Positions 1,878-26,371 of a DNA stretch of 32,000 nt are shown here, one piece after another. The notes below the pieces were generated by a model. The model searched no databases. It was not told the origin of the DNA and saw nothing but the letters and a program-made list of their open reading frames with translations. A program made the position numbers and the translations under genes. Source of the stretch: Vulcanisaeta distributa DSM 14429. Lineage in GTDB: Archaea > Thermoproteota > Thermoprotei > Thermoproteales > Thermocladiaceae. Location of the stretch: contig NC_014537.1 in assembly GCF_000148385.1 (NCBI RefSeq), positions 2,250,001 through 2,282,000 of the forward strand. Reading direction: 5' to 3'. Positions within the stretch are counted from its first letter, which is position 1, and every line of letters starts with the position of its first letter.

Positions 1878-1996
1878 GGGGCCGTAGTCTAGCCTGGCTA
1901 GGATGCACCAGGTTATGCCCTGGGTCCAACGGCCTGGGGAGCAATCCCCGCACGGTACGCCGGTGATCCCGGGTTCAAATCCCGGCGGCCCCACCA
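1878..1996 (+). tRNA. tRNA-Pro (anticodon GGG at 1936-1938) with two introns, CCA encoded
   Basis: Acceptor GGGGCCG/CGGCCCC, T arm CCGGG-TTCAAAT-CCCGG, discriminator A plus CCA. The gene is 119 nt, versus 78 nt expected for the mature tRNA. My best parse removes 1907-1929 (23 nt, inside the anticodon stem) and 1941-1958 (18 nt, at or next to position 37/38). That leaves stem CCGGC/GCCGG and loop CTGGGGA (U33, G37). Confidence 0.75.
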
Positions 1997-2090
1997 CGGA
2001 ACATTTATGTTGGATAAGGGTTTATTACCGTTATTGAAAATTGAAATGTGAAGGCGTAGTTGCATTCATGGCCGTGAGTTGGAGCATACG

Positions 2091-2384
2091 TTACACGCCT
2101 ATTTCCTGGAAGATCCTGTGCTTGGGCTTGTCCTCTAGGATCGTTCTTCCATACGTTATGGTCTCCTTATACTCCCTACTCATTATGAACCTTTTAAATG
2201 ATTCCAAATCTCTCCATTCACTATATATTAGGTATTCCGATGGATCATCAACGCTTCTATAGAGTTTTGCGTTTATGAAGCCGTCCACGTTTTCCCTAAG
2301 GAAGTTTAAAACCTCATTAAACATTCTCTCAAACTCCTCCTCATGACCCCTCTTAACCCTATAATACAGACCAACACTTATCAT
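2091..2384 (-). CDS. ABM-type (antibiotic biosynthesis monooxygenase-like) dimeric alpha/beta-barrel protein
   Basis: 97-aa ORF. The size and the pattern YRVKRGHEEEF...YLIYSEWRDLESFKRF resemble the ABM/ferredoxin-like fold family. Confidence 0.55.
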   Translation of the reverse strand: MISVGLYYRVKRGHEEEFERMFNEVLNFLRENVDGFINAKLYRSVDDPSEYLIYSEWRDLESFKRFIMSREYKETITYGRTILEDKPKHRIFQEIGV

Positions 2385-2415
2385 TTAAATCACCCATTAC
2401 TCTATCCCACATAAT

Positions 2416-2778
2416 TTACTGTTCAGTCAGGTTAAACATTGATTCATTTATTGTCACAACCTTACCATCATAATCCTCAACCCTTACACTCCTTTCACCA
2501 CCACTTATGGAGATGAGCACTGTCTTAACCCTACCAATGTTGCCTACCGCGATGGCCCTCTGAATTATTCTCCTGAACTCCTTATAATGATCTCCACAAC
2601 AAAAATACAACCTAGCACCAGCAACCTCCTGATAAGCCCCACTCCACGGCTTACCGCACACTTTACATCTAAGCGTTCCATCAATACTCAGGTAAGTGCC
2701 TGTCCTCCTATTATCACCACATAATGCGCATCCCGTGTACTCATCGCCAACCTCCCTGCCATTAATTATCACCTTCAT
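2416..2778 (-). CDS. Cys-rich putative zinc-binding protein (TRASH/zinc-ribbon-like)
   Basis: 120-aa ORF with CALCGD, CKVCGK and FCCGDHY cysteine motifs. I did not identify a family with confidence. Confidence 0.5.
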   Translation of the reverse strand: MKVIINGREVGDEYTGCALCGDNRRTGTYLSIDGTLRCKVCGKPWSGAYQEVAGARLYFCCGDHYKEFRRIIQRAIAVGNIGRVKTVLISISGGERSVRVEDYDGKVVTINESMFNLTEQ

Positions 2779-2898
2779 AATACTAAATCATTAATTATCT
2801 TACATTTATTGTGTTTGCGGCTTCTAATCTTTTATGAACAGTTATATTTATTAATATTTACTTCAATACAAATAAATATATTAACCATTGGCCAAGCA

Positions 2899-2905
2899 TT
2901 TTAAA
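2899..2905 (+). promoter_or_regulatory. TATA-like box for the C/D box sRNA
   Basis: TTTTAAA centred at 2902, about 25 nt upstream of the C box start at 2928. Confidence 0.4.
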
Positions 2906-2927
2906 CCCGCCCCACGCATTTCTAACT

Positions 2928-2976
2928 GTGATGTTAGGGAGTACGGCTGAGGGTTGATGATGTGGTCCTTCGCTGA
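2928..2976 (+). ncRNA. C/D box sRNA (2'-O-methylation guide) candidate
   Basis: Canonical layout: C GTGATGT (2928-2934), 12-nt guide tagggagtacgg, D' CTGA (2947-2950), ggg, C' TTGATGA (2954-2960), 12-nt guide tgtggtccttcg, D CTGA (2973-2976). Possible flanking stem ctaa/ttag. It has its own TATA upstream. Confidence 0.6.
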
Positions 2977-2988
2977 CGACTTAGTAAA

Positions 2989-2999
2989 GTTTTTAATTT
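2989..2999 (+). promoter_or_regulatory. TATA box of rps8
   Basis: GTTTTTAATTT centred 27 nt upstream of ATG 3021. The same 11-mer occurs at 13959-13969. Confidence 0.5.
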
Positions 3000-3020
3000 G
3001 CGTCTCTGCACGTTGGTTGT

Positions 3021-3413
3021 ATGGTAATGCTTGATGTCCTGGCGAATGCATTGACGATGATTAAGAATGCGGAGATGAGGGGCCATAGGGAGGTGATTAT
3101 TTGGCCTTCTTCTAAACTTGTTGGTAATGTTCTCAGGGTTATGCAGAGGTATGGCTATGTTGGTGAGATTGAGTTTATTGAGGATGGTAGGGGTGGTAAG
3201 TTTAAGGTTCAACTTCTCGGCAAGATAAACGATGTCGGCGCCATAAAGCCCAGGTTCAGCGTTAAGGTTTCTGAGCTAATGAGGTGGGAGGAGAAGTACT
3301 TACCGGCAAGGAATGTGGGCATACTGATCCTTAGCACGTCTAAGGGCGTATTATCGCATTTAGAGGCTAGGCAGATGAACGTTGGCGGCGTATTAATTGC
3401 ATACGTCTATTAA
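3021..3413 (+). CDS. rps8p: 30S ribosomal protein S8 (uS8)
   Basis: 130 aa. [12 protein letters not shown]...[16 protein letters not shown]...[28 protein letters not shown] is the uS8 pattern. Confidence 0.93.
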
Positions 3414-3420
3414 TGGTGGT

Positions 3421-3431
3421 AAATTTAAAAA
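3421..3431 (+). promoter_or_regulatory. TATA-like box of rpl32e
   Basis: AAATTTAAAAA centred about 29 nt upstream of ATG 3455. This supports the long N-terminal form of the protein. Confidence 0.4.
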
Positions 3432-3454
3432 GGCATTAACAGGGTGCTTCTGCG

Positions 3455-4060
3455 ATGTCCACGGAGGAGAGTAAGCCCACGGAGCAGGAGGCCCAACAGC
3501 AACCAAGTGGTGAGCAGGTGCAGGCAGAGACTCAAGCGCAGTCTGCTCAACAGTCACAGCAAACCACTGAGCAGGCAGTGGCTAAGCCAGAGGCCAAGCC
3601 GGAGGTTAAGGAGGTTAAGTTGCCGAGGCCCAGGGTCTCGCTGAGTGGTAAGTTGAGGCAATTATTGAGGCTTAGGTTGTTAATGGAAAGGAGGGAGCCG
3701 CGTTGGATGAGGATGGATGAGTGGAGGTACCTGAGGGTTGCTCATGGTGAGCATTGGCGTAGGCCCAGGGGTAATGATAATAAGATTAGGCTTGAGATTA
3801 AGGGTTACCCGAAGAGGGTTAAGGTTGGTTATGGAAAGCCGAGGCTTACCAGGAACTTACACCCAAGTGGTTTTAAGTTGGTTATTGTTCATAGGCCTGA
3901 GGATGTGGATAAGGTCGACCCGGCCAGGGAGGCCATTGTGATTGGCAGGACCGTAGGCCTTAGGAAGAGGGTTGAGATAGTTAGGAGGGCTATTGAGAGG
4001 GGCGTGAGGGTCATTAACGTCACTAAGGACGTAATTGAGGAATTAAGGAGGGCCCAGTGA
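3455..4060 (+). CDS. rpl32e: 50S ribosomal protein L32e (eL32) with a Q/E/A-rich N-terminal extension
   Basis: The C-terminal ~130 aa carry WRRPRGNDNKIRLEIKGYPKRVKVGYG...HPSGF, the eL32 signature. The first ~70 aa are low complexity (EQEAQQQPSGEQVQAETQAQSAQQSQQ). Confidence 0.9.
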   Translation: MSTEESKPTEQEAQQQPSGEQVQAETQAQSAQQSQQTTEQAVAKPEAKPEVKEVKLPRPRVSLSGKLRQLLRLRLLMERREPRWMRMDEWRYLRVAHGEHWRRPRGNDNKIRLEIKGYPKRVKVGYGKPRLTRNLHPSGFKLVIVHRPEDVDKVDPAREAIVIGRTVGLRKRVEIVRRAIERGVRVINVTKDVIEELRRAQ

Positions 4061-5980
4061 TTACGCCTTCAACTTCTCATTGAACCAATCAACAATAGCC
4101 TTCAACCTAACCATTCTGTGGCTGGGCTTACCGAACCTCGATAGGTCATGATTCTCGCCTGGAAACACAACCATCTTAACCTCCTTACCCAGGTACTTGA
4201 GTGCCGTGTATAGTTGTATGGCCTGCTCAAACCAACAGCGGTAGTCCTCGAGTGAGTGTATTATCAGTAATGGAGTCTTAACATTCTTCACGTACATAAT
4301 CGGCGACTTAACCATATAACTCTCTAGGTATGTCCAGAAGTCTCTGTCCTCACCACCACCGATTTGGTCATTGGCGAAGTAGGGCCCAATATCACTTGCA
4401 CCGAAGAAACTCACCCAGTTGGATATTGACCTATCCGTAATTGCAGCCCTGAACCTATCCGTATGCGTTATTACCCAATTGGTCATGAAGCCACCGTATG
4501 AACCACCAATGACCCCCAGCCGATTTGGGTCTATGAAGTCGTAATTCTTAATTACGTAGTCAAGGCCCTCCATTAAATCTTCATAATCCCTTTCGCCATA
4601 GTGCCCACGTATGTCTGCGAACTCCTCATCATAACCATCACTGCCCCTGGGATTCATGAAAACAACCACAAAGCCCTCACTAGCTAATAACTGGAATTCA
4701 AACATGAATGAGTAGCCATAGGCCGTCTTTGGGCCACCGTGAATCTCCAGAACCGCTGGATACCTAATGCCCTGTTTAAACCCTGTAGGTCTCATTAACC
4801 AGCCCTCAACCTCTCTACCATCGCTCGCACGGAACCTGAAGGGTTCGGGTCTTGAGAGCTCCACTGAGTTGACCCAGTCATTGAAGTTAGTTATCCTCTC
4901 CTCACTGCCATTGAACCACCTATATAGTTCAGTGGGTCTCAGTGGATCCATAGAGATGAAGTAAATGGTGCCATCCTTCATGACCGCGAAATCCTCTATA
5001 CTCCTCTCACCGCTAATCACGACATCAACACCACCATTGACACTAGCCCTAACCAGCTTTGACGCACCACCATCCATCATTATGAAGTAGACCCAATCAC
5101 CAACCCACTGAAGCCTTATCGGTGGTGGTGAACCCCTAACATCACTATTAAGGCTATTACCAACATTTCTATCGACACTCCTCATTAAATCAATGACCTC
5201 ACCACCCTCAGACCTAACAAGCATTACGTGGTCATGGGTAGCAAAACCCCTATGAAGGTCATTACCCACCAAAGCCAGGTACTTACCATCTGGCGACCAC
5301 TTAATTGCCGACACACTATAGTTACTAAGGACTGAATACCTCTCACCACTCTCTAAATTTACCACCCAAACCTCATTCCTGTAGGGCTTAAACTTGTTAG
5401 TGCTCACGGCAATGGCGACCCTCCTACCACTGGGCTCAACATCATAGGCAACAACATCGAAGTCCCCACTAGTTATTTGCCTAATTGAACCACCTAAATC
5501 AAGTGAGAATAGGTGCGATTTAAACGTGTGTATGAATCCCCTGCCATTAAACCAGAGGGGCCAATCCTCAACAAACTTAACATCCTCCTGAACAGGACCA
5601 ACATTACTCATGAAGTACATTACGCCATTAATAATTCGTAAATCATTAACGCCACCACCAATGTAAGCCACCTTCATGGCTTCACCACCATCAAACGGTA
5701 GGTACCAAACCTCAACGCCAGGTTTATCCTTACCAAACCCCCTCCTTGTTAGGAACACTAAGCCCTTACCGCTTAGAATCCTTGGTGAAAAGTCGTTATT
5801 ACCCCTCGTAACCTGCCTAAGGGTCTTACCATCATAAACCCAAACATTTCTCTCGTAATCCTCTAGGGAATCCGCAATCTTAGAGACGGTAAAAGCCAGG
5901 AGACCACCTTCAACGTCTGCATTTAGGTCATGGACCATCCTAACGAGCCTCAAGTCCTCAATTAACAACCTCCTAACCAT
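4061..5980 (-). CDS. S9-family serine peptidase (acylaminoacyl-peptidase / prolyl-oligopeptidase-like): beta-propeller plus alpha/beta hydrolase
   Basis: 639 aa. Nucleophile elbow GGSYGGFM, downstream acid (IHSLEDYRC) and His (GENHDL). Long N-terminal repeat region typical of propeller domains. Confidence 0.85.
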   Translation of the reverse strand: MVRRLLIEDLRLVRMVHDLNADVEGGLLAFTVSKIADSLEDYERNVWVYDGKTLRQVTRGNNDFSPRILSGKGLVFLTRRGFGKDKPGVEVWYLPFDGGEAMKVAYIGGGVNDLRIINGVMYFMSNVGPVQEDVKFVEDWPLWFNGRGFIHTFKSHLFSLDLGGSIRQITSGDFDVVAYDVEPSGRRVAIAVSTNKFKPYRNEVWVVNLESGERYSVLSNYSVSAIKWSPDGKYLALVGNDLHRGFATHDHVMLVRSEGGEVIDLMRSVDRNVGNSLNSDVRGSPPPIRLQWVGDWVYFIMMDGGASKLVRASVNGGVDVVISGERSIEDFAVMKDGTIYFISMDPLRPTELYRWFNGSEERITNFNDWVNSVELSRPEPFRFRASDGREVEGWLMRPTGFKQGIRYPAVLEIHGGPKTAYGYSFMFEFQLLASEGFVVVFMNPRGSDGYDEEFADIRGHYGERDYEDLMEGLDYVIKNYDFIDPNRLGVIGGSYGGFMTNWVITHTDRFRAAITDRSISNWVSFFGASDIGPYFANDQIGGGEDRDFWTYLESYMVKSPIMYVKNVKTPLLIIHSLEDYRCWFEQAIQLYTALKYLGKEVKMVVFPGENHDLSRFGKPSHRMVRLKAIVDWFNEKLKA

Positions 5981-12070: not shown

Positions 12071-13339
12071 ATGAGTATTGAGGGTGTGCTTAGGGAGGTT
12101 ATTGAGGAGTGGTTTGTTTTTAATCTGCCTAGGGTTATACCTAGGGATATTTCGTACTTATTACCTGAGGGTTCAGCCCTTGCGTTGGTCGGTCCTCGTA
12201 GAGCCGGTAAGACATATTTCATGTATTGGATCGCCCAAGACTTAATGAGTAAGGGTTGGCCTAGGTCAAGCATTATTTACATTAATTTCGAGGATGTTAG
12301 ATTAAGCGTTCTTAAGCCAACGGATTTCAGCATGTTTCTTAAGGTCATTAATGAGGAGGCGCGGGAGTACAATGGCAAGATATTGCTAATGCTTGATGAG
12401 GTTCAAAACCTACCGGAGTGGGGTCGCTGGGTGAGGACCCTGCTTGATAAGGGCAGGTACTTCGTGATACTCAGTGGTTCATCATCAAGGGTAAGGGCTA
12501 GTGATGTGGCTACGGAGTTGAGGGGTCGCTATATCGATAGGTTAGTGTTGCCATTTTCCTTCAGGGAGTTCCTAAGGGTCAGGGGTTTCGAGCAGGGATT
12601 TCTTGAGGTACCCGAGAGGCACGGTAAATTACTTAATCACTTGAGGGATTACGTACTTAATGGCTCCCTACCCGAGGTAGTGCTAAGGCCGGAAATGGCC
12701 AGTGACTTGGTTAGGACGTATAGGCAGACAATTATTTATAGGGACATAATCGAGAGGTACAGGATTAGGGATGCGGCGTTCTTTGAGACCTTCCTGGAGA
12801 TTGTTGAGAATAGTTTTGGAGGTTACGTCTCGGTGACGAAACTAAGCAATTACTTTAAGAGCTTAGGTATTAGCAAGAGCAAGAAGACACTGAGTAATTA
12901 CCTTAAGTACCTGGAGGAGTCGTACTACGTGGTACTCATTCGAAGGTTTGGGTTTTCAAGTAGGGAGGTCATTCAGCAGCCGAGGAAGGTGTACCCAATA
13001 GATACGGCATACTTCAGGAGGAAGTCCATTGAGCCAATGATGGAGAGCGTGGTTGCCGTGGAACTAATGAGGAGGGGACTTTCTTACAATTACCTGAGGA
13101 TAAATGATTACGAGGTTGATTTCGTAATAAATCAGGAGCCCAGGGAATACATCCAAGTCACCTACGCCTCGGCAATGGATGAAATCGATAGGAGGGAATT
13201 CAAAGCCTTAATCAGGGCCAATGAGGTGCTTGGGCGTGGGGTAGCTAGGGTAATTAGTTGGGACTTGGAGGATGAGATCGAGATCGAGGGAATCAAGGTC
13301 AAGGTAACGCCGCTCTGGAGGTGGTTACTCATGGGCTAA
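12071..13339 (+). CDS. AAA+ ATPase of the COG1373 type (AAA_14 N-terminal domain plus DUF4143-like C-terminal half)
   Basis: 422 aa. Walker A GPRRAGKT, Walker B LLMLDEVQ. The length and overall pattern match the widespread archaeal/bacterial predicted ATPase family. Confidence 0.8.
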   Translation: MSIEGVLREVIEEWFVFNLPRVIPRDISYLLPEGSALALVGPRRAGKTYFMYWIAQDLMSKGWPRSSIIYINFEDVRLSVLKPTDFSMFLKVINEEAREYNGKILLMLDEVQNLPEWGRWVRTLLDKGRYFVILSGSSSRVRASDVATELRGRYIDRLVLPFSFREFLRVRGFEQGFLEVPERHGKLLNHLRDYVLNGSLPEVVLRPEMASDLVRTYRQTIIYRDIIERYRIRDAAFFETFLEIVENSFGGYVSVTKLSNYFKSLGISKSKKTLSNYLKYLEESYYVVLIRRFGFSSREVIQQPRKVYPIDTAYFRRKSIEPMMESVVAVELMRRGLSYNYLRINDYEVDFVINQEPREYIQVTYASAMDEIDRREFKALIRANEVLGRGVARVISWDLEDEIEIEGIKVKVTPLWRWLLMG

Positions 13340-13374
13340 TGCTTAAAGCCCATGGCCGTAACGTTAAGTGGGCA

Positions 13375-13857
13375 ATGCAGGAATTAAGGTGTGGGGAAAG
13401 TAATGATGAGTTGTTGAGGGTGATGAAGGTCATTGAGGAGTTAAGCCCCTACTGGGAATTGATAGGGATTAAGGTTGAGGATGTGGGTAGGGACTGCGCC
13501 ATAGGCTTCGTGGAGGTGGGCAGGAAGCACCTACAGGTGCTAGGCACGGTACATGGCGGAGTCCACGCGGCGCTGGTCGACGCAATGGCCTGGGTAGCCA
13601 TAATAAGCCACTACTACCCAAGGTACGTAATCGCAGTAACCACAGACCTAACAGTGAAGTACCTAAAGCCAATAACCGAGGGAGTGCTCAGGGCAGTGGC
13701 AAGGATAACACACATCAAGGAACCAATGGCACTAATAACCGCAGAACTAAGGAACAAAAACAACGAATTAATAGGAACATCAACAATGACCTACTGGATA
13801 ACGCCCACAAGCAAGGCACTAAATGAAGTAATAAACGAATTAAGGAATATGGCATGA
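13375..13857 (+). CDS. hotdog-fold thioesterase, PaaI family
   Basis: GTVHGGVHAALVDAMAWVA is the PaaI-type motif. Start is uncertain: ATG 13339 overlaps the upstream stop (TAATG), while ATG 13375 lies about 30 nt after the TATA-like CTTAAAG. Confidence 0.75.
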   Translation: MQELRCGESNDELLRVMKVIEELSPYWELIGIKVEDVGRDCAIGFVEVGRKHLQVLGTVHGGVHAALVDAMAWVAIISHYYPRYVIAVTTDLTVKYLKPITEGVLRAVARITHIKEPMALITAELRNKNNELIGTSTMTYWITPTSKALNEVINELRNMA

Positions 13858-13880
13858 TAAGTTGGAAGAGTTTAGAAGCG

Positions 13881-13934
13881 TATTCCTTAAATCGTTCCGT
13901 GGCAAAATTTTGCCATGGCTCGAATTATTGGAAA
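13881..13934 (+). repeat. left copy of a perfect 54-bp inverted repeat (contains the 16-bp palindrome TGGCAAAATTTTGCCA at 13900-13915)
   Basis: Checked base by base: this is the exact reverse complement of 16769-16822. Confidence 0.95.
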
Positions 13935-13958
13935 TTATTCGTGGTTCGTGGGTGGTTT

Positions 13959-13969
13959 GTTTTTAATTT
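13959..13969 (+). promoter_or_regulatory. TATA box of the P-loop ATPase gene
   Basis: GTTTTTAATTT centred 28 nt upstream of ATG 13992, preceded by the 13-mer TTCGTGGTTCGTG (13938-13950). Confidence 0.5.
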
Positions 13970-13991
13970 TTGTGTTGGTGGTTTTCTCTTG

Positions 13992-15167
13992 ATGGTTGGT
14001 TTGAGTGTTGATTCGTTGGTTGGGTGGATTGGTGGTCGTGAGGTTGTGTTGGGTGGTTTTCGTACTAGGTTTAGGGATAGGGGGTTTGAGGTTGGGGCTT
14101 TGCTTGGTGATTTGTTTAGGTTTGAGCATGTTGGTGTGGTTTATGGGCCCCTGGGTGCTGGTAAGTCTACGTTTCTTAGGTTGTTTGTTGGTGGTGTTGA
14201 GGAGCTTGGTGGTGTTGCTGGTGTTTATATTAATTATGATGGTGGTATTGTTGACGTGCTTTACCGTGGGGTTGATGCCTTCGGTGTTAGGGATTCTGTG
14301 GTTAATGCTGTGCTTAATGTGGTGGCTTCCCCGTCTGGGACGTCCGTCGGTGTTTCGGTGGCTTTGGGCGTGATTGTTTCGTTGATGAGGAGACTCTTTG
14401 AGTTAGTTAGGGGTTGGGGTGTTGACCGTGTTGTCATTGTTCATGATGACCTGGATAGGTGGTTGGCTTCGAGGGGCCTGGGGAATGCCATTGAGGGTCT
14501 TGTGGGTCTGCTCTCGAATTTGTACGAGGGTGGTCCTGCGGGTGTTGAGAGGCCCTGGGGTGATAAGTACAGCGTCACCTACGTGGCGTTGAGTGATTAT
14601 ACTGCGGTGGAGGTGGTCAATAGGTATAGGGGTAAGGGCGGACTACGCGCAATGCTCATGTGGAACCTGCCCAAGGAACCATTCATGGACTTAATCCTTG
14701 AGTTGGCGGGGAGGCGGGACATCGATATTGAGTTGCTGTGGCAGTTACTCGGTGGTAACCCAAGGGCCCTATCACAGTTAGCCACCGCCTATGGCTGGGA
14801 CGTGGATGCCTGGCTTAGGGATGCCATTAACGAGGTTGTTGGGGTACTGAATGAGGAGAAGGAGAGGCTGGGCCTCGGTAGTGTTGGTGAGGTCTTGGAC
14901 ATCGTGATCAGGCGCGTTGGGCAGGACGTGGGTCCGGACAACCTAGTACTGGGCACGCCGCTTCACGTGGGGCCATTGTTGAGGAATAACATATTGATTG
15001 GCATGAGCTCGACGGCAATATCGCAACTACCGAGCGAGCCCTGGGTAGGGAGGCACTATGCGTATCAATTACCGACGTATTACTGGGTGGTCAGGGCGAT
15101 GGCAATTAGGGGTAAAGTGGACGTAAAACCAGGCGATGTTGTGAGTGTGATAAGGCAATCAATTTAA
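13992..15167 (+). CDS. P-loop NTPase of the archaeal ATPase (Arch_ATPase/STAND-like) type
   Basis: Walker A GPLGAGKST, Walker B VVIVHDDLD. The track ORF begins at 13854, but those 46 codons cover the repeat and the promoter, so ATG 13992 fits a leaderless start. Confidence 0.7.
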   Translation: MVGLSVDSLVGWIGGREVVLGGFRTRFRDRGFEVGALLGDLFRFEHVGVVYGPLGAGKSTFLRLFVGGVEELGGVAGVYINYDGGIVDVLYRGVDAFGVRDSVVNAVLNVVASPSGTSVGVSVALGVIVSLMRRLFELVRGWGVDRVVIVHDDLDRWLASRGLGNAIEGLVGLLSNLYEGGPAGVERPWGDKYSVTYVALSDYTAVEVVNRYRGKGGLRAMLMWNLPKEPFMDLILELAGRRDIDIELLWQLLGGNPRALSQLATAYGWDVDAWLRDAINEVVGVLNEEKERLGLGSVGEVLDIVIRRVGQDVGPDNLVLGTPLHVGPLLRNNILIGMSSTAISQLPSEPWVGRHYAYQLPTYYWVVRAMAIRGKVDVKPGDVVSVIRQSI

Positions 15168-15225
15168 TGATAAGACGTCCTCGGCAGGGAATGGCTCCCC
15201 TCAAGCAATCTTGGGATTTCGCCGT

Positions 15226-15243
15226 CGCCTAATTAATTAGGCG
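15226..15243. promoter_or_regulatory. perfect 18-bp palindrome upstream of the NTase-like operon
   Basis: CGCCTAATTAATTAGGCG, 20 nt upstream of the TATA-like element at 15263-15273. Confidence 0.45.
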
Positions 15244-15262
15244 TTAATTCATGGTTTTAGTG

Positions 15263-15273
15263 CTATTTTTAAG
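15263..15273 (+). promoter_or_regulatory. TATA-like box of the NTase-like operon
   Basis: CTATTTTTAAG centred 28 nt upstream of GTG 15296. Confidence 0.4.
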
Positions 15274-15295
15274 TTGTCTTATCCCTTATTTGTTT

Positions 15296-15811
15296 GTGGA
15301 GGTTCCTCGGGAGGTTTTGTTGGTGGTTTCGGTGCTTAGGAAGCTTGGCTTTAGGGTTTTTCTTATTGGTGCCAGGGCCCTGGCTTTTTATGGTATTGTT
15401 AGGGAGACGGGTGATTGGGATTTAACCATTGATAGGCCGTTCAGCGTTGAGGTTAGGGATGCGGTAACTAGGGAGTTGAGGGGTTTGGGTTTCTCCGTGC
15501 AGTGGCGTAGGTGGGGCTTCTACGTTGATGCCGGCGCCGTTCATGCTTACATTAACTGCATGCCCCTAACCCTGGATGAGGAATTCATCAGTAGGTCTAG
15601 GGCTTTGGGGGATGTCCTTATTCCATCGATTGAGGATTTAATAATCCTTAAGTTGATGAGTGGTGAGGATAAGGACGTGGAGGACGTTAAGAGACTGCTC
15701 AAGCTACCCAACCTTGACCTACCCTACCTGCTCCGGCGCTCACGCGATGCGGGTGTTGATAAGGATTTATTAAGGATTGCCAGGAAGATTGGCTTGAGGA
15801 TTGATGGTTAG
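15296..15811 (+). CDS. nucleotidyltransferase-fold protein (minimal NTase / AbiEii-DUF6036-like)
   Basis: FLIGARALAFYGIVRETGDWDLTI resembles hG[GS]x9-13DxD. IEDLIILKLMSGEDKDVEDVKRLL is typical of this family. The track start ATG 15251 adds an implausible hydrophobic leader, so GTG 15296 is preferred. Confidence 0.6.
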   Translation: MEVPREVLLVVSVLRKLGFRVFLIGARALAFYGIVRETGDWDLTIDRPFSVEVRDAVTRELRGLGFSVQWRRWGFYVDAGAVHAYINCMPLTLDEEFISRSRALGDVLIPSIEDLIILKLMSGEDKDVEDVKRLLKLPNLDLPYLLRRSRDAGVDKDLLRIARKIGLRIDG

Positions 15812-16295
15812 GGAGTTCGTGTTTAACGAGGGTTGCGTGGTCATTGATAATGTCAGGTTGCCCATTGACGTGGCCAGGGCATTGAGTAATTATGGTTGCT
15901 CCTTCACAGGCTGGACCGCCCTAGCCATACACGCGGGGAGCAAGTTGTTGATTCTATACCACCCGAATTACCTCGAGATCGCGTGCCCGGACATCGAGGC
16001 CGTGGTCAGCGGGCTCAGGAGGCTCGAACTAGTGATTTGGCGTGGGAGGCGCTGGGCCACGGTTGGTTGGGTCTACAGACCGCTCAGGGTGGCGCTCGGT
16101 GAATTGAGGATCTTCAGTGAGGAGGTTAGTAGCGAGGGTGAGAGGTGTGGGTTGGGCGTGGCCTCGATAATCGACGCCGCCAGGCACATAATGCGGTTTA
16201 GGGAGCGCGTGAGGGACCTCAGGCTTGTTGAGAGGTACTCAAACGGCAGGGTTAGAATACCCACGGGATTGATGACGGCAAAACACCATTTTTAA
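15804..16295 (+). CDS. hypothetical protein, apparent degenerate paralogue of the upstream NTase-fold protein
   Basis: ATG 15804 overlaps the upstream stop by 8 nt. The sequence is colinear by eye (ALSNYGCSFTGWTALAIHAG vs LRKLGFRVFLIGARALAFYG; RGRRW vs WRRWG), but the acidic DxD pair is absent. Confidence 0.5.
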   Translation: MVREFVFNEGCVVIDNVRLPIDVARALSNYGCSFTGWTALAIHAGSKLLILYHPNYLEIACPDIEAVVSGLRRLELVIWRGRRWATVGWVYRPLRVALGELRIFSEEVSSEGERCGLGVASIIDAARHIMRFRERVRDLRLVERYSNGRVRIPTGLMTAKHHF

Positions 16296-16316
16296 CGGGT
16301 GAAGCATCAATCCACA

Positions 16317-16580
16317 TCACTGGTCAAGACCACCCCTCAACTCCCTCAAGGCCTCAACAGCACCCCTGATATACTCCTCCTCCCTATCAGGAACCACAGC
16401 ACCATAAATAGTCAAAGTCCTCCACTGAGTCCTGGTAGCATACACATACTCAGCAGGACCCACATAACAACGAGAACCATCACCATGATAAAACCTGAAA
16501 TAAACCCTACCATTAGACCTAAACGAATGCACAGACCTAACAACCCTCCCACACCTCGGACAAATCAACACCTCACCCAT
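16317..16580 (-). CDS. small zinc-ribbon protein (CPRCG ... HGDGSRC)
   Basis: The TATA TTTATAAG (minus strand, 16603-16610) is centred 27 nt upstream of ATG 16580 (MGEVLICPRCG...). The track start 16601 would overlap that TATA. Confidence 0.55.
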   Translation of the reverse strand: MGEVLICPRCGRVVRSVHSFRSNGRVYFRFYHGDGSRCYVGPAEYVYATRTQWRTLTIYGAVVPDREEEYIRGAVEALRELRGGLDQ

Positions 16581-16602
16581 CAATAAACAAAACCCAACCA
16601 AA

Positions 16603-16610
16603 CTTATAAA
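16603..16610 (-). promoter_or_regulatory. TATA box of the Zn-ribbon gene
   Basis: TTTATAAG on the minus strand, 27 nt from ATG 16580. Confidence 0.45.
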
Positions 16611-16768
16611 TTACTTTCACCATTAATAATACCTATTATATTAATAAAAATTTCATAATATAACAAAACTACGGTAATTATACAACCAAACAAACATCAA
16701 ATACAGCAAACCACAACCACAAGACACATCACCCATTTTCCTTCACTAATTCGGCACATTATGACTAT

Positions 16769-16822
16769 TTTCCAATAATTCGAGCCATGGCAAAATTTTG
16801 CCACGGAACGATTTAAGGAATA
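16769..16822 (-). repeat. right copy (inverted) of the 54-bp repeat (16-bp palindrome at 16788-16803)
   Basis: Exact reverse complement of 13881-13934. The outward flank 16823-16842 still matches the reverse complement of 13861-13880 at 11/20, and 8 of the 9 mismatches are transitions. Confidence 0.95.
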
Positions 16823-16868
16823 TATTTTTAAATTCTTTTTATGGTTTGTCTTTCGTGGTTTGTGCGTT

Positions 16869-16879
16869 GTTTTTAAATT
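16869..16879 (+). promoter_or_regulatory. TATA box of the mannosidase gene
   Basis: GTTTTTAAATT, preceded by TTCGTGGTTTGTG (16852-16864), and centred about 28 nt upstream of GTG 16902. Confidence 0.45.
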
Positions 16880-16901
16880 GGTGTTTGTTATTTCGTTGTT
16901 G

Positions 16902-19829
16902 GTGTTTGTGGGTTTTGATTTGAGGGATGTTGGTGGTGTTAGGACTAAGTTGTTTTATCTTGAGGCTGCTTCCATAATGGGTGTTGATGCTGTTAATCTT
17001 GAGGCCTGTGGTGGTGCTCTCTGTGGTTCTGTTGTGGTTAGGGATTTTGGTGAGCCTTGGTTTTTTGTTGATGTTGTTGGTGAGGGTACTCTCAGGGTTG
17101 ATGATCTTCAGTTCGCTGTTTTTAATTACGGTGATGAGGGTGAGAGTAGGTGGGTTAGGGCTTCCCCAGGTAGGCATTCCCTATCGCTTGTTTTGTCCCC
17201 TGTTAGGATGTTTGGTGAGCGTAGGGTTAGTTTCAATGGTATGTACGTTGTTTATAGGGAGCCATCACTGTTCAGTTTTGTCCTTAGGGCTAAGCTCCTG
17301 CTTGATGTTGCCGAGGCCTTCGAGGACCTAAGGACTGACTACCTCAAGGTACTTAATGAGGCCCTTGACGCGGTTCCCCTGGACTCCGTGGCTAATTGGC
17401 AGTTGGAGTTCGCGGTTAGGGCTCATATTGTTGAGCCTCCAGGCTTTGTTAGGGCGTTGTTTAATTACTACGATGCCAAGGAGCTGACGCACCTGAGGCC
17501 GCCTGATTTCAGCGAGCTTGGTAGGGCTGCTAAGGAGGGTTTGAGGATCCTTGAGGAGGGTATTGAGGGGTTGAGGGTTAGGAGGGGTCATAGGGGCGTT
17601 GTTTATGTTGCTGGTCACGCGCACATAGACCTTGGCTGGCTTTGGAGTAGGGACGTGACCAGGGAGAAGGTTAGGAGGACAATCATCAACGTCCTATCGC
17701 TACTTCAGTCGTACCCGGAGCTCACATTCCTCGTGTCTAACATGGCGTACCTAAGGTGGCTTAGTGAGGATAGGGATTTGTGGGTTAGGGTTAGGGAGGC
17801 CGTTAAGGCCGGTAGGATAGTGCCCGTGGGCGGTATGTGGGTTGAGAGTGATGCTAACTTGCCCGGTGGTGAATCCCTGGTGAGGCAGTTCCTATACGGG
17901 CAGAGGTTCCTCCTCAGGGGGTTTGGCTTCACCACGGAGATTGGTTGGTTGCCCGACACCTTCGGATTCCCAGCATCACTACCACAAATACTAAGGAAGG
18001 CGGGGATTAGGGTGTTCTTTGAGCATAAGATGTATTGGAACACGGTCAATAGATTCCCATACTCCGTATTCCTTTGGGAGGGGATTGATGGCTCGGTGAT
18101 ACCCACAATAAACTATGCAACCTACGGCGCCGACTTAACGCCTAGGCAAATAGCCAGGGCCTGGTCAGACCACACAAGCCCCGAGCTACCGGCCTTCCTA
18201 CCCTTCGGTAAGGGTGATGGTGGTGGGGGACCGACATGGCTAATGCTCGAGAGGTACAGGGTGTATAGGGACTTGCCAGGTATGCCGAGGCTCATCATGG
18301 GTAATCTAAAGGACTTAATTAGTGAGGTTGTGAGGGACGACTCATTACCGAGGTGGAGGGGTGAGCTATACCTTGAGATTCACAGGGGGGTTTACACGAA
18401 TGGTATAAGGCTTAAGCAGTTGGTTAGGGCTCTCGAGACGAAGCTTAGGGAATTGGAGACCTTCAGTGTAATTGCCGGTGTAAGGAGGAGTTATGAGGAG
18501 CTTTGGTATCCACTACTCGAGGCTGAGTACCACGACCCAATGGGGGCTACGTCGACGAAGTCCGTATATGATGAGGTGGTCAATGAGCTCGAGGAGGACT
18601 TGAAGAGGGTTGATGGGGAGTTGATGAACGTGCTCAGGAAGACCCTTGGCACAGGCTGCTTCGTAACGATCGTTAACCCACTGCCCTGGGCCCGTAGGGA
18701 GTTGGTCATGGTTAGGGAGGAGCTGAGTGGTGTGGCAACGCAGAGGGTTGGCAATGGTTACCTGGCGCTCATTGAGGTCCCGGCCCTTGGCTGGAGGTCC
18801 TTCGAGAAGGGCCCAGGGAACTCCATGGGTGACGTAACCGTGGGTAGTAACTATGTCGAGAATTCCGTGGTTAGGGTTGTGTTTGATGGTTCGTTGAGGA
18901 TCTACGATAAGGAGGTTGGGAGGTGGGCCGTTGAGGACGGCTATTTAATGGCCTGTGAGGATATGCCGAGTCGATGGGATGGATGGGACATAGACGCTTA
19001 CTACAGGAGGGTTTGTAGGAGGTTGGAACCGACTGGGTTTAGCGTCGTGGAGGGTGGACCGTTGAGGGGTTGTATTGAGGTTAATTATAGGTTTAGGGAG
19101 TCGAGTATTAGGCAGAGGATTTGCGTGAATGCCTTCAGTAGGCGTGTTGATGTGGAGAATGAGGTTGACTGGAGGGAGAGGTTAACGCTTCTGAAGGCCG
19201 TTTATAAACTCGGCATATTCGGGCATAGCGCATCCTTTGAGGTACCCTACGGCGTGGTTAATAGGCCGACGAGGCCGAGCAATACCTGGGAGGTGGCTAA
19301 GTTTGAGGTACCCGCCCTGCGTTGGGTCGATGTTTGGGACCCAGACTACGGCGTCGCCATACTTAATGATGGTAGGCAGGGCTACTCAGTTGAGGAGAAT
19401 ACCGTGACAATAACACTACTCAGGTCACCCATTTACCCGAACCCATTCCTGGACTACGGCCATAACAAGTTCACCTACGCCATATACCCACACTCAGGTG
19501 ATTGGAGGACTGCCCAAGTGCCCAGGAGGGCTTATGAGTTCAATCAACCACTAATTATTGTTGAGGGTACGGCGGGCGGCGACTCATCATTCCTCGAGAT
19601 CACAAACCCAGCAATAATGCTCGAGGCCCTTAAGTGGGGTGAGGACTCGGGGATTGTACTAAGGCTTTACGAGACCTACGGAGTAAACACATGCACCGAG
19701 GTCAGGGGCTTCATCAAGGGTGAAGGCGTTGAGACCGACCTCCTCGAGCTAAACAATTACGGCAATGCGGACCTGGGCAACCTCTGCTTTAGGCCCTTCG
19801 AGATAAAGACAATACTAGTCAAGTCATGA
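16902..19829 (+). CDS. GH38-family alpha-mannosidase
   Basis: About 975-989 aa. The GH38 metal/catalytic motif VAGHAHIDLGWLW is present. Start is uncertain: the track gives TTG 16860, promoter spacing favours TTG/GTG at 16896-16902, and the first ATG is at 16977. Confidence 0.85.
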   Translation: MFVGFDLRDVGGVRTKLFYLEAASIMGVDAVNLEACGGALCGSVVVRDFGEPWFFVDVVGEGTLRVDDLQFAVFNYGDEGESRWVRASPGRHSLSLVLSPVRMFGERRVSFNGMYVVYREPSLFSFVLRAKLLLDVAEAFEDLRTDYLKVLNEALDAVPLDSVANWQLEFAVRAHIVEPPGFVRALFNYYDAKELTHLRPPDFSELGRAAKEGLRILEEGIEGLRVRRGHRGVVYVAGHAHIDLGWLWSRDVTREKVRRTIINVLSLLQSYPELTFLVSNMAYLRWLSEDRDLWVRVREAVKAGRIVPVGGMWVESDANLPGGESLVRQFLYGQRFLLRGFGFTTEIGWLPDTFGFPASLPQILRKAGIRVFFEHKMYWNTVNRFPYSVFLWEGIDGSVIPTINYATYGADLTPRQIARAWSDHTSPELPAFLPFGKGDGGGGPTWLMLERYRVYRDLPGMPRLIMGNLKDLISEVVRDDSLPRWRGELYLEIHRGVYTNGIRLKQLVRALETKLRELETFSVIAGVRRSYEELWYPLLEAEYHDPMGATSTKSVYDEVVNELEEDLKRVDGELMNVLRKTLGTGCFVTIVNPLPWARRELVMVREELSGVATQRVGNGYLALIEVPALGWRSFEKGPGNSMGDVTVGSNYVENSVVRVVFDGSLRIYDKEVGRWAVEDGYLMACEDMPSRWDGWDIDAYYRRVCRRLEPTGFSVVEGGPLRGCIEVNYRFRESSIRQRICVNAFSRRVDVENEVDWRERLTLLKAVYKLGIFGHSASFEVPYGVVNRPTRPSNTWEVAKFEVPALRWVDVWDPDYGVAILNDGRQGYSVEENTVTITLLRSPIYPNPFLDYGHNKFTYAIYPHSGDWRTAQVPRRAYEFNQPLIIVEGTAGGDSSFLEITNPAIMLEALKWGEDSGIVLRLYETYGVNTCTEVRGFIKGEGVETDLLELNNYGNADLGNLCFRPFEIKTILVKS

Positions 19830-24736: not shown

Positions 24737-25264
24737 ATGGCAACAAAAATGAATAGAAAGGGTATATCCAACGTAGTGGCAACAATAATACTCATAGCCG
24801 TGGCAATAGCACTGGCAGTGGCAGTCGCCGTATGGGTCTTCGGCCTAGCAGGCTCAGCAAGCAAAACAGCATCACTTCAAATACAGGCACTGGGCTTAAG
24901 TGGTGTCGGTAACGGTAATAACACCTCTCCATACCTAGTAATCTTAGTCAGCAATCCATCAAGCAGTGGCGTTGGTATTAACGGTTTCACACTAGGAAGC
25001 TTAAGCTGTGTGTTTACTCAGCCAATTTCAATAGCCGCCGGAACACAGGGAGGAAACCTAACGATAGTACTACAGACATCTAATGGCTACTTCGCAACGG
25101 GATCAAACGCTATAACTGTAAGTTACAAGTATAACGGTAATACAGAATCAACAAGTGGAAGCTGTAGCGGACAGCAGGCTGCCCAGGTTGGTATACAATA
25201 CAGTGGCTATATAACGACCGTTAGCGGGCAAACATACCCATTCTCAGTAACGGCAACCTCATAA
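24737..25264 (+). CDS. archaeal type IV pilin-like protein with a class III signal peptide
   Basis: N-terminus MATKMNRKG/ISNVVATIILIAVAIALAVAV is the PibD/FlaK-type cleavage motif plus hydrophobic helix. The rest is S/T/G/N-rich. Confidence 0.75.
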   Translation: MATKMNRKGISNVVATIILIAVAIALAVAVAVWVFGLAGSASKTASLQIQALGLSGVGNGNNTSPYLVILVSNPSSSGVGINGFTLGSLSCVFTQPISIAAGTQGGNLTIVLQTSNGYFATGSNAITVSYKYNGNTESTSGSCSGQQAAQVGIQYSGYITTVSGQTYPFSVTATS

Positions 25265-25303
25265 TACGGTTAATGCCTTAAATCGTTTCGTTAAAAAATT
25301 CAA

Positions 25304-25363: not shown

Positions 25364-26371
25364 TTATTTACTGAACCAGGGTTCTTTGCCGAACCAGGGT
25401 GTCTCTACCTCGTCTAATCTCCATCTTTGTTTTGTTACTGCCTCGGTTGGGTCTATGGTGATTCCGCTTTTGTAGGCGAGTAGCCCTGTTAGTGCTATCA
25501 TTCCTCCGTTGTCTCCCGCGTACTCTGGTGGTACTATGCCCAGTTTTGCGTTGAATTCATTGGCTATCCACTCCATTATTGACCTGAGCCTCCTACTCCT
25601 CGCCACGCCACCAGCCAGTAGCAGTTCCCTCTTGCCCGTCAACGCGAGTCCCCTCTCGACCACTTCACCGAGCATTGAGTATGCCGTTTCAACAAGGCTT
25701 AGGCATACGTCAGGTAACGCGACGCCCCTCCTAACGAGCCTTAGGGCCTCCTCGACTAATCCAGAGAAAGATACGTCCTGCCCCTTCACTGTGTATGGCA
25801 GCGGTATGTATTTACTACCCTTCTCCGCACACTCCTCCAGGTGCGGCACGCCTGGGTTTGGCAACCCAACACTCCTCGCGAAGTAGTCTAGGGCATTGCC
25901 GACGGCCATGTCTATGGTCTCGCCGAAGACCCCGTAGGACCTACCGGAGTGGGCTATAACCATAGTGTGGCCTCCAGACACGAGTAGGACTAGTGGGTCC
26001 CTGAACCTTACGGACCACCTAGCAACCTCGACATGCGCCACACCGTGGTGCACAGGCACCAGCGGCTTGCCGAACTTAATGGCTATTGCCCTCGCCAGGG
26101 TGGCGCCGACCCTCAGGGCTGGACCAAGGCCTGGGCCCATGGAGAAGGCCACTGCGTCTATATCCCTAATGCCTATACCCAACCTCCTTAGTGCCTCGTT
26201 GAGTATTCTTGGGCCTACTGTCACGTGGTGGTCCGCGGCAACCCTTGGGTGTATGCCCACGCCCTGTGGTGGTGTGTACGTGTCGTTGATGTTCACGAGT
26301 ATCCCATCCTCACTGGCTATCCCAACGCCGAAGGTGTGCGCCGTGGATTCGATGCCCAGTACGAGCGTCAT
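25364..26371 (-). CDS. kae1: Kae1, tRNA N6-adenosine threonylcarbamoyltransferase (KEOPS catalytic subunit)
   Basis: 335 aa. N-terminus LVLGIESTAHTFGVGI, VHHGVAHVE metal-binding His pair, ASKHA-fold pattern throughout. Not fused to Bud32. Confidence 0.9.
   Translation of the reverse strand: MTLVLGIESTAHTFGVGIASEDGILVNINDTYTPPQGVGIHPRVAADHHVTVGPRILNEALRRLGIGIRDIDAVAFSMGPGLGPALRVGATLARAIAIKFGKPLVPVHHGVAHVEVARWSVRFRDPLVLLVSGGHTMVIAHSGRSYGVFGETIDMAVGNALDYFARSVGLPNPGVPHLEECAEKGSKYIPLPYTVKGQDVSFSGLVEEALRLVRRGVALPDVCLSLVETAYSMLGEVVERGLALTGKRELLLAGGVARSRRLRSIMEWIANEFNAKLGIVPPEYAGDNGGMIALTGLLAYKSGITIDPTEAVTKQRWRLDEVETPWFGKEPWFSK

Follow-up and report, generated by a model that had tools for sequence, protein, structure and literature searches.

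The 32,000-nucleotide stretch analysed here (positions 2,250,001 to 2,282,000 of contig NC_014537.1 of Vulcanisaeta distributa DSM 14429; hereafter the window, or W) carries, between a thioesterase gene and an α-mannosidase gene, a cassette of four genes bracketed by two inverted copies (W1, left; W2, right) of a dyad-symmetric element, which we named E. The cassette encodes a PF01637 ATPase, a pair of proteins that had been called nucleotidyltransferase (NTase)-like, and a Zn-ribbon protein. This content is as given in the preliminary description, a reading of the letters alone, with the NTase-like pair now resolved into a DUF6036 gene and a partner without family match. An intron-containing tRNA, a 5S rRNA and ribosomal protein genes mark the window as archaeal. 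The coordinates of all features are collected in Table 1.

Table 1. Features of the window around the cassette and the copies of E (window coordinates)
Feature	Position	Strand	Basis or remark
Left anchor, 4HBT thioesterase gene	13321..13857	+	stop codon 13855-13857, 24 nt before the 54-mer; Pfam, synteny
Left outer flank, putative distal left arm of the ancestral ~100-bp palindrome (L-type)	13861..13880	+	agrees with L021/L010 (L-type flank) and with L037 (left arm)
Left copy of E (W1): outer arm, palindromic core, inner arm	13881..13934	+	perfect 54-mer; nhmmer match to the E profile, E = 4e-15
Perfect 16-bp palindromic core TGGCAAAATTTTGCCA, left	13900..13915	.	kept in Vulcanisaeta copies from 6 assemblies and in many metagenome contigs
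Second conserved box TCGTGGTTCGT, left	13939..13949	+	23 nt 3' of the core; family consensus TCRTRAYTYGT; by eye
PF01637 archaeal ATPase gene, variable part of the cassette	13992..15167	+	Pfam ATPase_2, 4.3e-14
DUF6036 NTase-like gene	15251..15811	+	Pfam, 7.7e-07; kept in L021, L010, L098 and L106
Partner gene (164 aa)	15801..16295	+	no family match
Zn-ribbon gene (CPxC..H..C)	16317..16580	-	sole gene common to all cassette versions at the locus
Promoter-like box GGTGAAAGTAATTTATAAG	16601..16623	-	~25-30 nt before the ATG of the Zn-ribbon gene; almost unchanged in L098, L099 and L102
Second conserved box TCATAATGTGC (minus strand), right	16754..16764	-	by eye
Right copy of E (W2), inverted	16769..16822	-	exact reverse complement of 13881-13934
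Perfect 16-bp palindromic core TGGCAAAATTTTGCCA, right	16788..16803	.	
Right outer flank, putative distal right arm of the ancestral palindrome (R-type)	16823..16842	-	orthologous to the right arm of L037
Right anchor, GH38 α-mannosidase gene	16902..19829	+	reading frame opens at 16860, likely start near 16902; Pfam, synteny
Decayed third E-like half-element, core lost	25273..25300	+	23/28 to the left arm; below the nhmmer threshold

The inverted copies of E in the window

Scripted comparison of W1 with the reverse complement of W2 confirmed identity at all 54 positions, for which our own arithmetic gives a chance expectation of ~1e-24 exact inverted 54-nt matches in 32 kb. A repeat search extended the homology, at weaker conservation, to arms of 75 nt (13866-13940 and 16763-16837; 91% complementary), which form the longest inverted repeat in the window, the runner-up being 40 nt at 75%. 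Recounting the outer 20 nt (13861-13880 against the reverse complement of 16823-16842) gave the same figures as those reported from the letters: 11 of 20 positions agree, and the nine differences comprise eight transitions and one transversion. The earlier statements on symmetry held as well, the 54-mer being an imperfect palindrome (its two arms match each other at 19/27 positions) with a perfect 16-bp palindrome, TGGCAAAATTTTGCCA, in its core. This core occurs exactly twice in the window; at up to three mismatches there are three matches, compared to 0.13 expected.

The 54/54 identity had been read as a core that alone stayed identical, with selection, gene conversion or very recent exchange as possible causes. 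This is wrong in detail, since the two copies of V. distributa JCM 11216 (L021) are identical at only 40/54 positions. At the 14 positions that distinguish them, both window copies carry the same states: nine R-type, four L-type and one unique. Outside the 54 bp, among 25 diagnostic positions, W1 has 12 L-type, seven R-type and six other states, whereas W2 is R-type at 23/25. Because the arms of the metagenome contig L037, which has a single E, already show the left/right distinction, the identity in the window represents recent homogenisation and not preservation. As far as this mosaic of diagnostic positions tells, the perfect 54 bp reflects a recent gene conversion that would have erased ~14 older differences, so that conversion is the listed cause that gains support. 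In Vulcanisaeta sp. JCM 16161 (L098; 2.29-Mb contig), the inner arms likewise share, by eye, states that are missing in other genomes.

The locus in related lineages

Synteny searches by BLAST recovered both E copies and the cassette, in the window's orientation, in V. distributa JCM 11216 and JCM 11217 (L010), in each case without the ATPase gene. The ATPase segment (~13945-15243), whose right edge carries a perfect 18-bp palindrome, CGCCTAATTAATTAGGCG, at 15226-15243, is present in the window and in JCM 16161; in JCM 11216 and JCM 11217 about 48 nt replace window positions 13940-15266. JCM 16161 has the complete four-gene cassette in the window's orientation, and L106, a short contig that does not cover the flanks, has the same internal gene order.

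Three other lineages carry a single E at this locus. In V. sp. JCM 14467 (L011), it lies directly between the thioesterase and mannosidase genes, as it does in L037 and a further metagenome contig, L084; the palindrome of L037 extends ~45 nt to each side. In UBA163 (L019), the single E is a perfect 50-nt palindrome followed by different genes. Orthologous left copies were found in JCM 11216, JCM 11217, JCM 16161, JCM 14467, UBA163 and L037. The left outer arm and flank of the window align to the left arm of the single palindromes, and the right outer arm and flank to their right arm. Because of this orthology, the cassette is placed in the centre of an old long palindrome. On the evidence of these alignments, what had been called transition-decayed flanks correspond to the outermost parts of its two arms, and the cassette supplies the inner arms as its inverted ends.

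The identity matrix of the mannosidases, from which the grouping was read without building a tree, suggests the order (L099,((L019,L037),(L011,(L098,(W,L021))))). Together with the absence of the cassette from three lineages, this grouping implies that precise gain or loss at the core happened twice or more.

Inverted arrangements were found at two loci. At the thioesterase/mannosidase locus of L099, L100, L101, L105 and L108-L111, the cassette consists of the Zn-ribbon gene only, lies parallel to the flanking genes and has at its ends inverted copies of E', a variant of E with the core GGGCAAAATTTTGCC. In the metagenome contig L107, the same Zn-ribbon-only cassette lies at the same locus antiparallel to its flanks. 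In a blastn comparison of the reverse complement of L107 against L099, positions 1-2990 are collinear, 2949-3572 inverted and 3543-5264 collinear again; each overlap between blocks coincides with an E core, and the inner arms have changed places, as they should after an inversion. By this alignment, L107 differs from L099 by a clean 0.6-kb inversion with breakpoints in the E cores. The identity of the two contigs is 85.6% in the left flank, 84.0% in the inverted cassette and 96.5% in the right flank (mannosidase); the rise at the right E copy points to recombination between lineages with a breakpoint at E. At the second locus, the outer-left flank of E site B in the metagenome contig L035 continues across the core into the inner flank of site D, a configuration that would be expected from inverting the 3.48-kb B..D interval of L024/L062.

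One further variant concerns direct copies. In L024, a gene termed ATPase-B lies between direct copies of E; it is absent from L094. The deletion/duplication junction of L094 falls within homologous flanking sequence ~50 nt away from the core, as would suit an exchange driven by homology.

The Zn-ribbon gene also occurs elsewhere, beside a PF01637 ATPase gene and LysE, in L024 (5899-6180) and L102 (6051-6329), where the thioesterase/mannosidase cassette is missing. In L024 it lies inside the inverted E(C)..E(D) interval, and L102 has one E nearby. Between the thioesterase/mannosidase and ATPase/LysE loci the Zn-ribbon gene is 58-70% identical, and E does not always stand on both sides of it.

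Of the window's reading frames, 30 were scanned against Pfam, with five open reading frames (ORFs) of at least 90 aa near the right end omitted; these 30 include no recombinase, integrase or resolvase domain and, as had been stated, no transposase. Searches of Pfam, NCBIfam and PHROGs gave no recombinase match for any cassette protein, and the latter two no family match for the Zn-ribbon protein. Its AlphaFold model is of moderate confidence (predicted local distance difference test, pLDDT, 73) and has no significant fold match in the PDB. A homologue search gave 15 clusters, and all those traced to an organism or locus are Vulcanisaeta-type. The box GGTGAAAGTAATTTATAAG upstream of the gene probably acts as its promoter. 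A link between E and PF01637 ATPases was considered and set aside, as the window's ATPase is unrelated to ATPase-A and ATPase-B of L024 beyond the superfamily and the association may be chance.

Element E across the genus Vulcanisaeta

A scan of one genome per species with the pattern CCRTGGCAAAATTTTGCCA returned 23 stretches, eight of them in six Vulcanisaeta assemblies; the other matches are single, occur in unrelated and mostly GC-rich bacteria, and are about as many as our own estimate of chance. The same pattern returned 74 stretches from metagenomes, mostly Vulcanisaeta-like hot-spring contigs. An unrelated bacterial contig, L073 (GC 0.60), has at 732-882 a repeated palindrome of its own, TCCGTGGCAAAAATTTGCCACGGAT, and matched only through likeness to the E core. 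The conserved part of E is a dyad of ~32 bp with a consensus of about TYGNNYCRTGGCAAAATTTTGCCAYGRNNCRA, and in many copies the second box TCRTRAYTYGT lies, by eye, 23-26 nt to one side of the core. Core variants include a 1-nt deletion in the right copy of JCM 11217 and GCCG in the C site of L062.

Exact cores number one to three per Vulcanisaeta assembly, and E, which is specific to Vulcanisaeta, occupies at least seven conserved intergenic sites across the genus: thioesterase/mannosidase (the locus of the window), ABCE1/saccharopine dehydrogenase-like (SDH), citrate synthase/CarB, ATPase-A/ATPase-B/u303, LysE/PpsA, S10/M16 peptidase, and an unnamed gene/MarC. Dispersed copies in large numbers, as in mobile repeat families, were not seen in these assemblies. 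E lies 25-85 nt past a stop codon at eight of the nine positions measured and stands between tandem or convergent genes, with about half of the sites between convergent 3' ends. It is never found in divergent promoter regions, except for the right copy of the window, which we take to be derived. Upstream of the mannosidase gene it is always present, at ~105-120 nt. Units of E also recur in unrelated surroundings, since the L009 copy and site D of L024 are 93% identical over 61 nt with unrelated flanks.

No direct duplications of a target site flank E. Phage and plasmid collections gave no match to the 2.98-kb segment, and viral contigs none to the core. Rfam reports nothing on E, either at the gathering threshold over the whole window or at E<=10 over 13700-17000, and a literature search with the core sequence returned no match. 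To our knowledge, neither E nor any module-shuffling site has been described in Thermoproteales.

The decayed half-element at 25273-25300 has the convergent ORF 24737-25264 on one side and the TsaD/Kae1 gene (25364-26371) on the other, a 3'-end placement like that of the intact copies elsewhere. Near site B, a TnpB insertion (Cas12f1-like TNB domain) of 1.5-2.5 kb is found at the 3' end of ATPase-A, ~80 nt from E, in L030 (3283-4778), L079 (2900-5442), L028, L062 and L090; it is accompanied by a 26-bp duplication of the ATPase-A end. Several other identities for E were tried and rejected. Descent from IS200/IS605 ends was dropped because the ends of the TnpB insertion sequence (IS) beside site B are unlike E. 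A likeness of TTCCGTGGCAAA to the mini-origin recognition box (mini-ORB) was considered and dropped, since the copies of E do not keep the 'TTCC' part and the neighbourhood has no orc1/cdc6 gene. For C/D-box, H/ACA and tRNA-fragment readings, the defining boxes are missing (by eye).

Recombination at E, rival readings and neighbouring features

We consider it reasonably probable that the 54-mers mark where, at left and right, a cassette is joined to the conserved palindrome that houses it, and that these copies recombine with each other by general or short-homology exchange. Ancestrally, a single E palindrome of ~100 bp would have lain between the thioesterase and mannosidase genes. In the window's clade, the cassette lies in its centre, each side joined through a complete symmetric core, so that each junction consists of outer arm, core and inner arm, and the junctions are inverted copies of each other. 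Either strand of the core has an identical sequence, which lets a pair of E copies align in both senses; a crossover between them could then flip, delete or add the DNA that separates them. In the lineage of the window, gene conversion has recently passed sequence between the copies. The exchange probably proceeds by general homologous or short-homology recombination at the repeat rather than by a dedicated enzyme, and E itself probably has another primary role at gene 3' ends, where it is likely bound by protein.

Several points weigh against this interpretation. Precise gain or loss between inverted repeats is impossible by ordinary homologous recombination, and the 16-22-bp symmetric core must act as a direct repeat; at least two such events at one locus, as the mannosidase identity matrix implies, look more like site-specific exchange. 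Whether they were insertions or excisions depends on the distance matrix of one gene. No orientation variant occurs within the window's own clade (the window, JCM 16161, JCM 11216 and JCM 11217, with flanks visible in all four). In sample 3300003614, every contig with a visible flanking gene shows one and the same orientation. Each inverted arrangement is known from one metagenome contig (L107 and L035), although the repeats of these contigs (30-42 nt) are shorter than typical final assembly k-mers. Moreover, the scans required the core, so that its invariance is partly a matter of ascertainment. The invertible segment proposed in the preliminary description stands in part: both orientations exist among relatives, for the Zn-ribbon cassette (flipped in L107 compared to L099) and for the B..D interval, but the window's clade has one orientation, no invertase lies nearby and no re-pairing of promoters was seen.

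Another reading makes E the site at which a dedicated site-specific system crosses over, its recombinase gene lying elsewhere in the genome. The E-bounded segments (the Zn-ribbon gene, the NTase pair and PF01637 ATPases) would be mobile or invertible modules in the manner of Acinetobacter dif modules or shufflons, the symmetric AT-rich centre allowing inversion as well as excision and integration. It is possible, if on balance unlikely. E resembles recombinase core sites in having conserved inverted inner arms around the centre AAAATTTT and more variable outer arms. Gains and losses recur precisely at the core of one locus, inversion breakpoints lie in the core at two loci, the Zn-ribbon gene occurs in E-bounded intervals of three different architectures, and core or arm variants are shared by both copies within a genome (GGGCAAAATTTTGCC in L099; the inner arms in JCM 16161). 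Against it, no recombinase was found among the scanned window ORFs or beside E at the loci whose neighbours were examined; the junction in L094 is not in the core, many sites have just one E that stays in place from species to species, the Zn-ribbon gene of L102 has only one E, 2.2 kb away, with none after LysE, phage and plasmid matches are lacking, and E has no sequence similarity to known dif sites. In its boldest form, E would be an unrecognised archaeal site for cassette exchange and inversion with the core TGGCAAAATTTTGCCA, served by an unlinked host recombinase and possibly assisted by the Zn-ribbon protein, a chromosomal crenarchaeal counterpart of dif modules and shufflons; we hold this to be a doubtful, though tenable, proposal. 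Also tentative, and rather unlikely as the whole explanation, is a reading of E as a 3'-end hairpin element in RNA or single-stranded DNA, a bidirectional terminator or transcript stabiliser resembling repetitive extragenic palindromic (REP) elements, with the rearrangements as side effects of dispersed repeats. The placement 25-85 nt past stop codons and the absence from divergent promoters outside the derived right copy agree with it, as do the orientation of E, co-directional with the upstream gene in 4/4 tandem contexts, a strong predicted hairpin (-22.3 kcal/mol, z = -4.9; -18.4 on the opposite strand), a T-rich run before the left arm in several classes, and variable stem pairs that all toggle to G.U on the stronger-folding sense strand, none to A.C. 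However, this G.U bias could be explained by the strong G+T skew of the sense strand (by eye), and pairing among 21 non-redundant copies shows no covariation beyond column composition (73.3% paired compared to 73.4% in shuffled columns). The palindrome is unbroken through its centre and leaves no free loop, as is typical of duplex recognition and not of an RNA hairpin; Rfam has no match even at E<=10, and the right copy of the window has no upstream co-directional gene.

In a third rival reading, a dimeric transcription factor binds E as its operator or upstream site and co-regulates the adjoining genes, and the inverted pair places the convergent units of the cassette and the mannosidase under the same control site. 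The perfect 16-22-bp dyad is kept across species while the flanks diverge, half-sites follow a consensus without covariation, and in tandem contexts the centre of E precedes the start codon of the next gene by 85-120 nt (mannosidase, SDH, ATPase-B, M16 peptidase and NTase/ATPase). By contrast, the roughly half of the sites between convergent 3' ends lie 25-60 nt from stop codons (E(C), E(D), CarB/citrate synthase and MarC), with no room for a promoter; the neighbouring genes share no function, and no regulator gene is linked. A shared operator as the general role of E, one of the hypotheses raised at the outset, is hence not supported, as these sites have no promoter to control, and we regard the reading as improbable overall; such a role is conceivable for the mannosidase, given its constant E at ~105-120 nt upstream. 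More improbable still, to the point of being very hard to credit, is that a palindromic miniature inverted-repeat transposable element (MITE) inserted twice independently, in opposite orientations, and happens to bracket the four genes. E is indeed dispersed, with near-identical units of ~60 nt in different contexts (L009 and L024-D), and the earlier suggestion of a MITE-like element in both orientations is borne out to that extent. But E is low in copy number and lacks target-site duplications, orthologous single sites in cassette-free relatives make the outer arms older than the cassette, and no related transposase was found, the TnpB IS ends being unlike E. Two independent insertions do not account for the pair, whose copies derive from one ancestral palindrome and the inverted ends of the cassette.

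Comparison with known systems gives partial likenesses. In Acinetobacter, dif modules are flanked by dyad sites in inverse orientation, conserved in their inner and variable in their outer parts (PMC6449649), and dif sites have an 11-6-11 architecture and consensus bound by Xer recombinases (PMC2958812, PMC6449649). The E loci are similar in that a short dyad site, in inverted copies, encloses small sets of genes, many of them accessory or of toxin-antitoxin type, that the same module content appears in different configurations, and that IS elements insert near the sites, here the TnpB IS ~80 nt from E(B). However, E is chromosomal and archaeal, ~32-54 bp long compared to 28 bp, and fully symmetric at its centre; its core does not resemble the dif architecture or consensus (by eye), no Xer-type enzyme is linked, and E also forms stable single sites after housekeeping genes. 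With invertible segments (Hin, Gin, Fim and shufflons) it shares inverted repeats that bound a segment found in both orientations among relatives (L099 and L107; L024 and L035), whereas no invertase lies in or beside the segment, heterogeneity is seen among lineages rather than inside one population, the repeats are part of a family with single members at other loci, and no promoter switch is evident. Bacterial REP elements and bacterial interspersed mosaic elements (BIMEs) are likewise imperfect palindromes of a few tens of nucleotides, 3' intergenic, oriented, and points of recombination and rearrangement; unlike them, E has a handful of copies per genome, orthologous sites across species and a palindrome that is perfect through the centre. 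We know of no RAYT-like transposase for E. Finally, in a Campbell-type integration the outer arms, which match the empty sites of JCM 14467, UBA163 and L037, would be the attB halves, the inner arms the attP halves, and crossover would fall in the shared core, but no integrase, circular form or element-like gene content was seen. The att sites of known archaeal integrative elements are usually in tRNA genes. E lacks the dif consensus and any link to Xer, has no invertase beside it, and occurs in few copies that no target duplications flank; it therefore belongs to none of the three groups, dif modules, invertible segments or REP elements.

Altogether, a short symmetric sequence marks gene gain, loss and flipping in several Vulcanisaeta lineages, and its two copies evolve in concert. 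Should a dedicated enzyme act on E, archaea would have yielded a new recombination system whose site is compact and portable; otherwise, E would be a clear natural example of a conserved palindrome driving local genome plasticity in a hyperthermophile.

Some features of the surroundings are of independent interest. In JCM 11217, the thioesterase gene is split by a 1.7-kb insert (4002-5765) with minus-strand ORFs of 296 and 193 aa, the former with a weak WhiA/LAGLIDADG-like match. In JCM 16161, an IS607-like pair (a serine recombinase with Resolvase and HTH_17 domains, and an MJ0013/TnpB-like gene) lies at 1923-3837, ~6 kb from the right E, and the gene content past the mannosidase is unlike that of the window. 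In the window itself, the tRNA at 1878-1993, which ARAGORN in bacterial mode had missed, spans 116 nt according to Rfam and presumably contains an intron.

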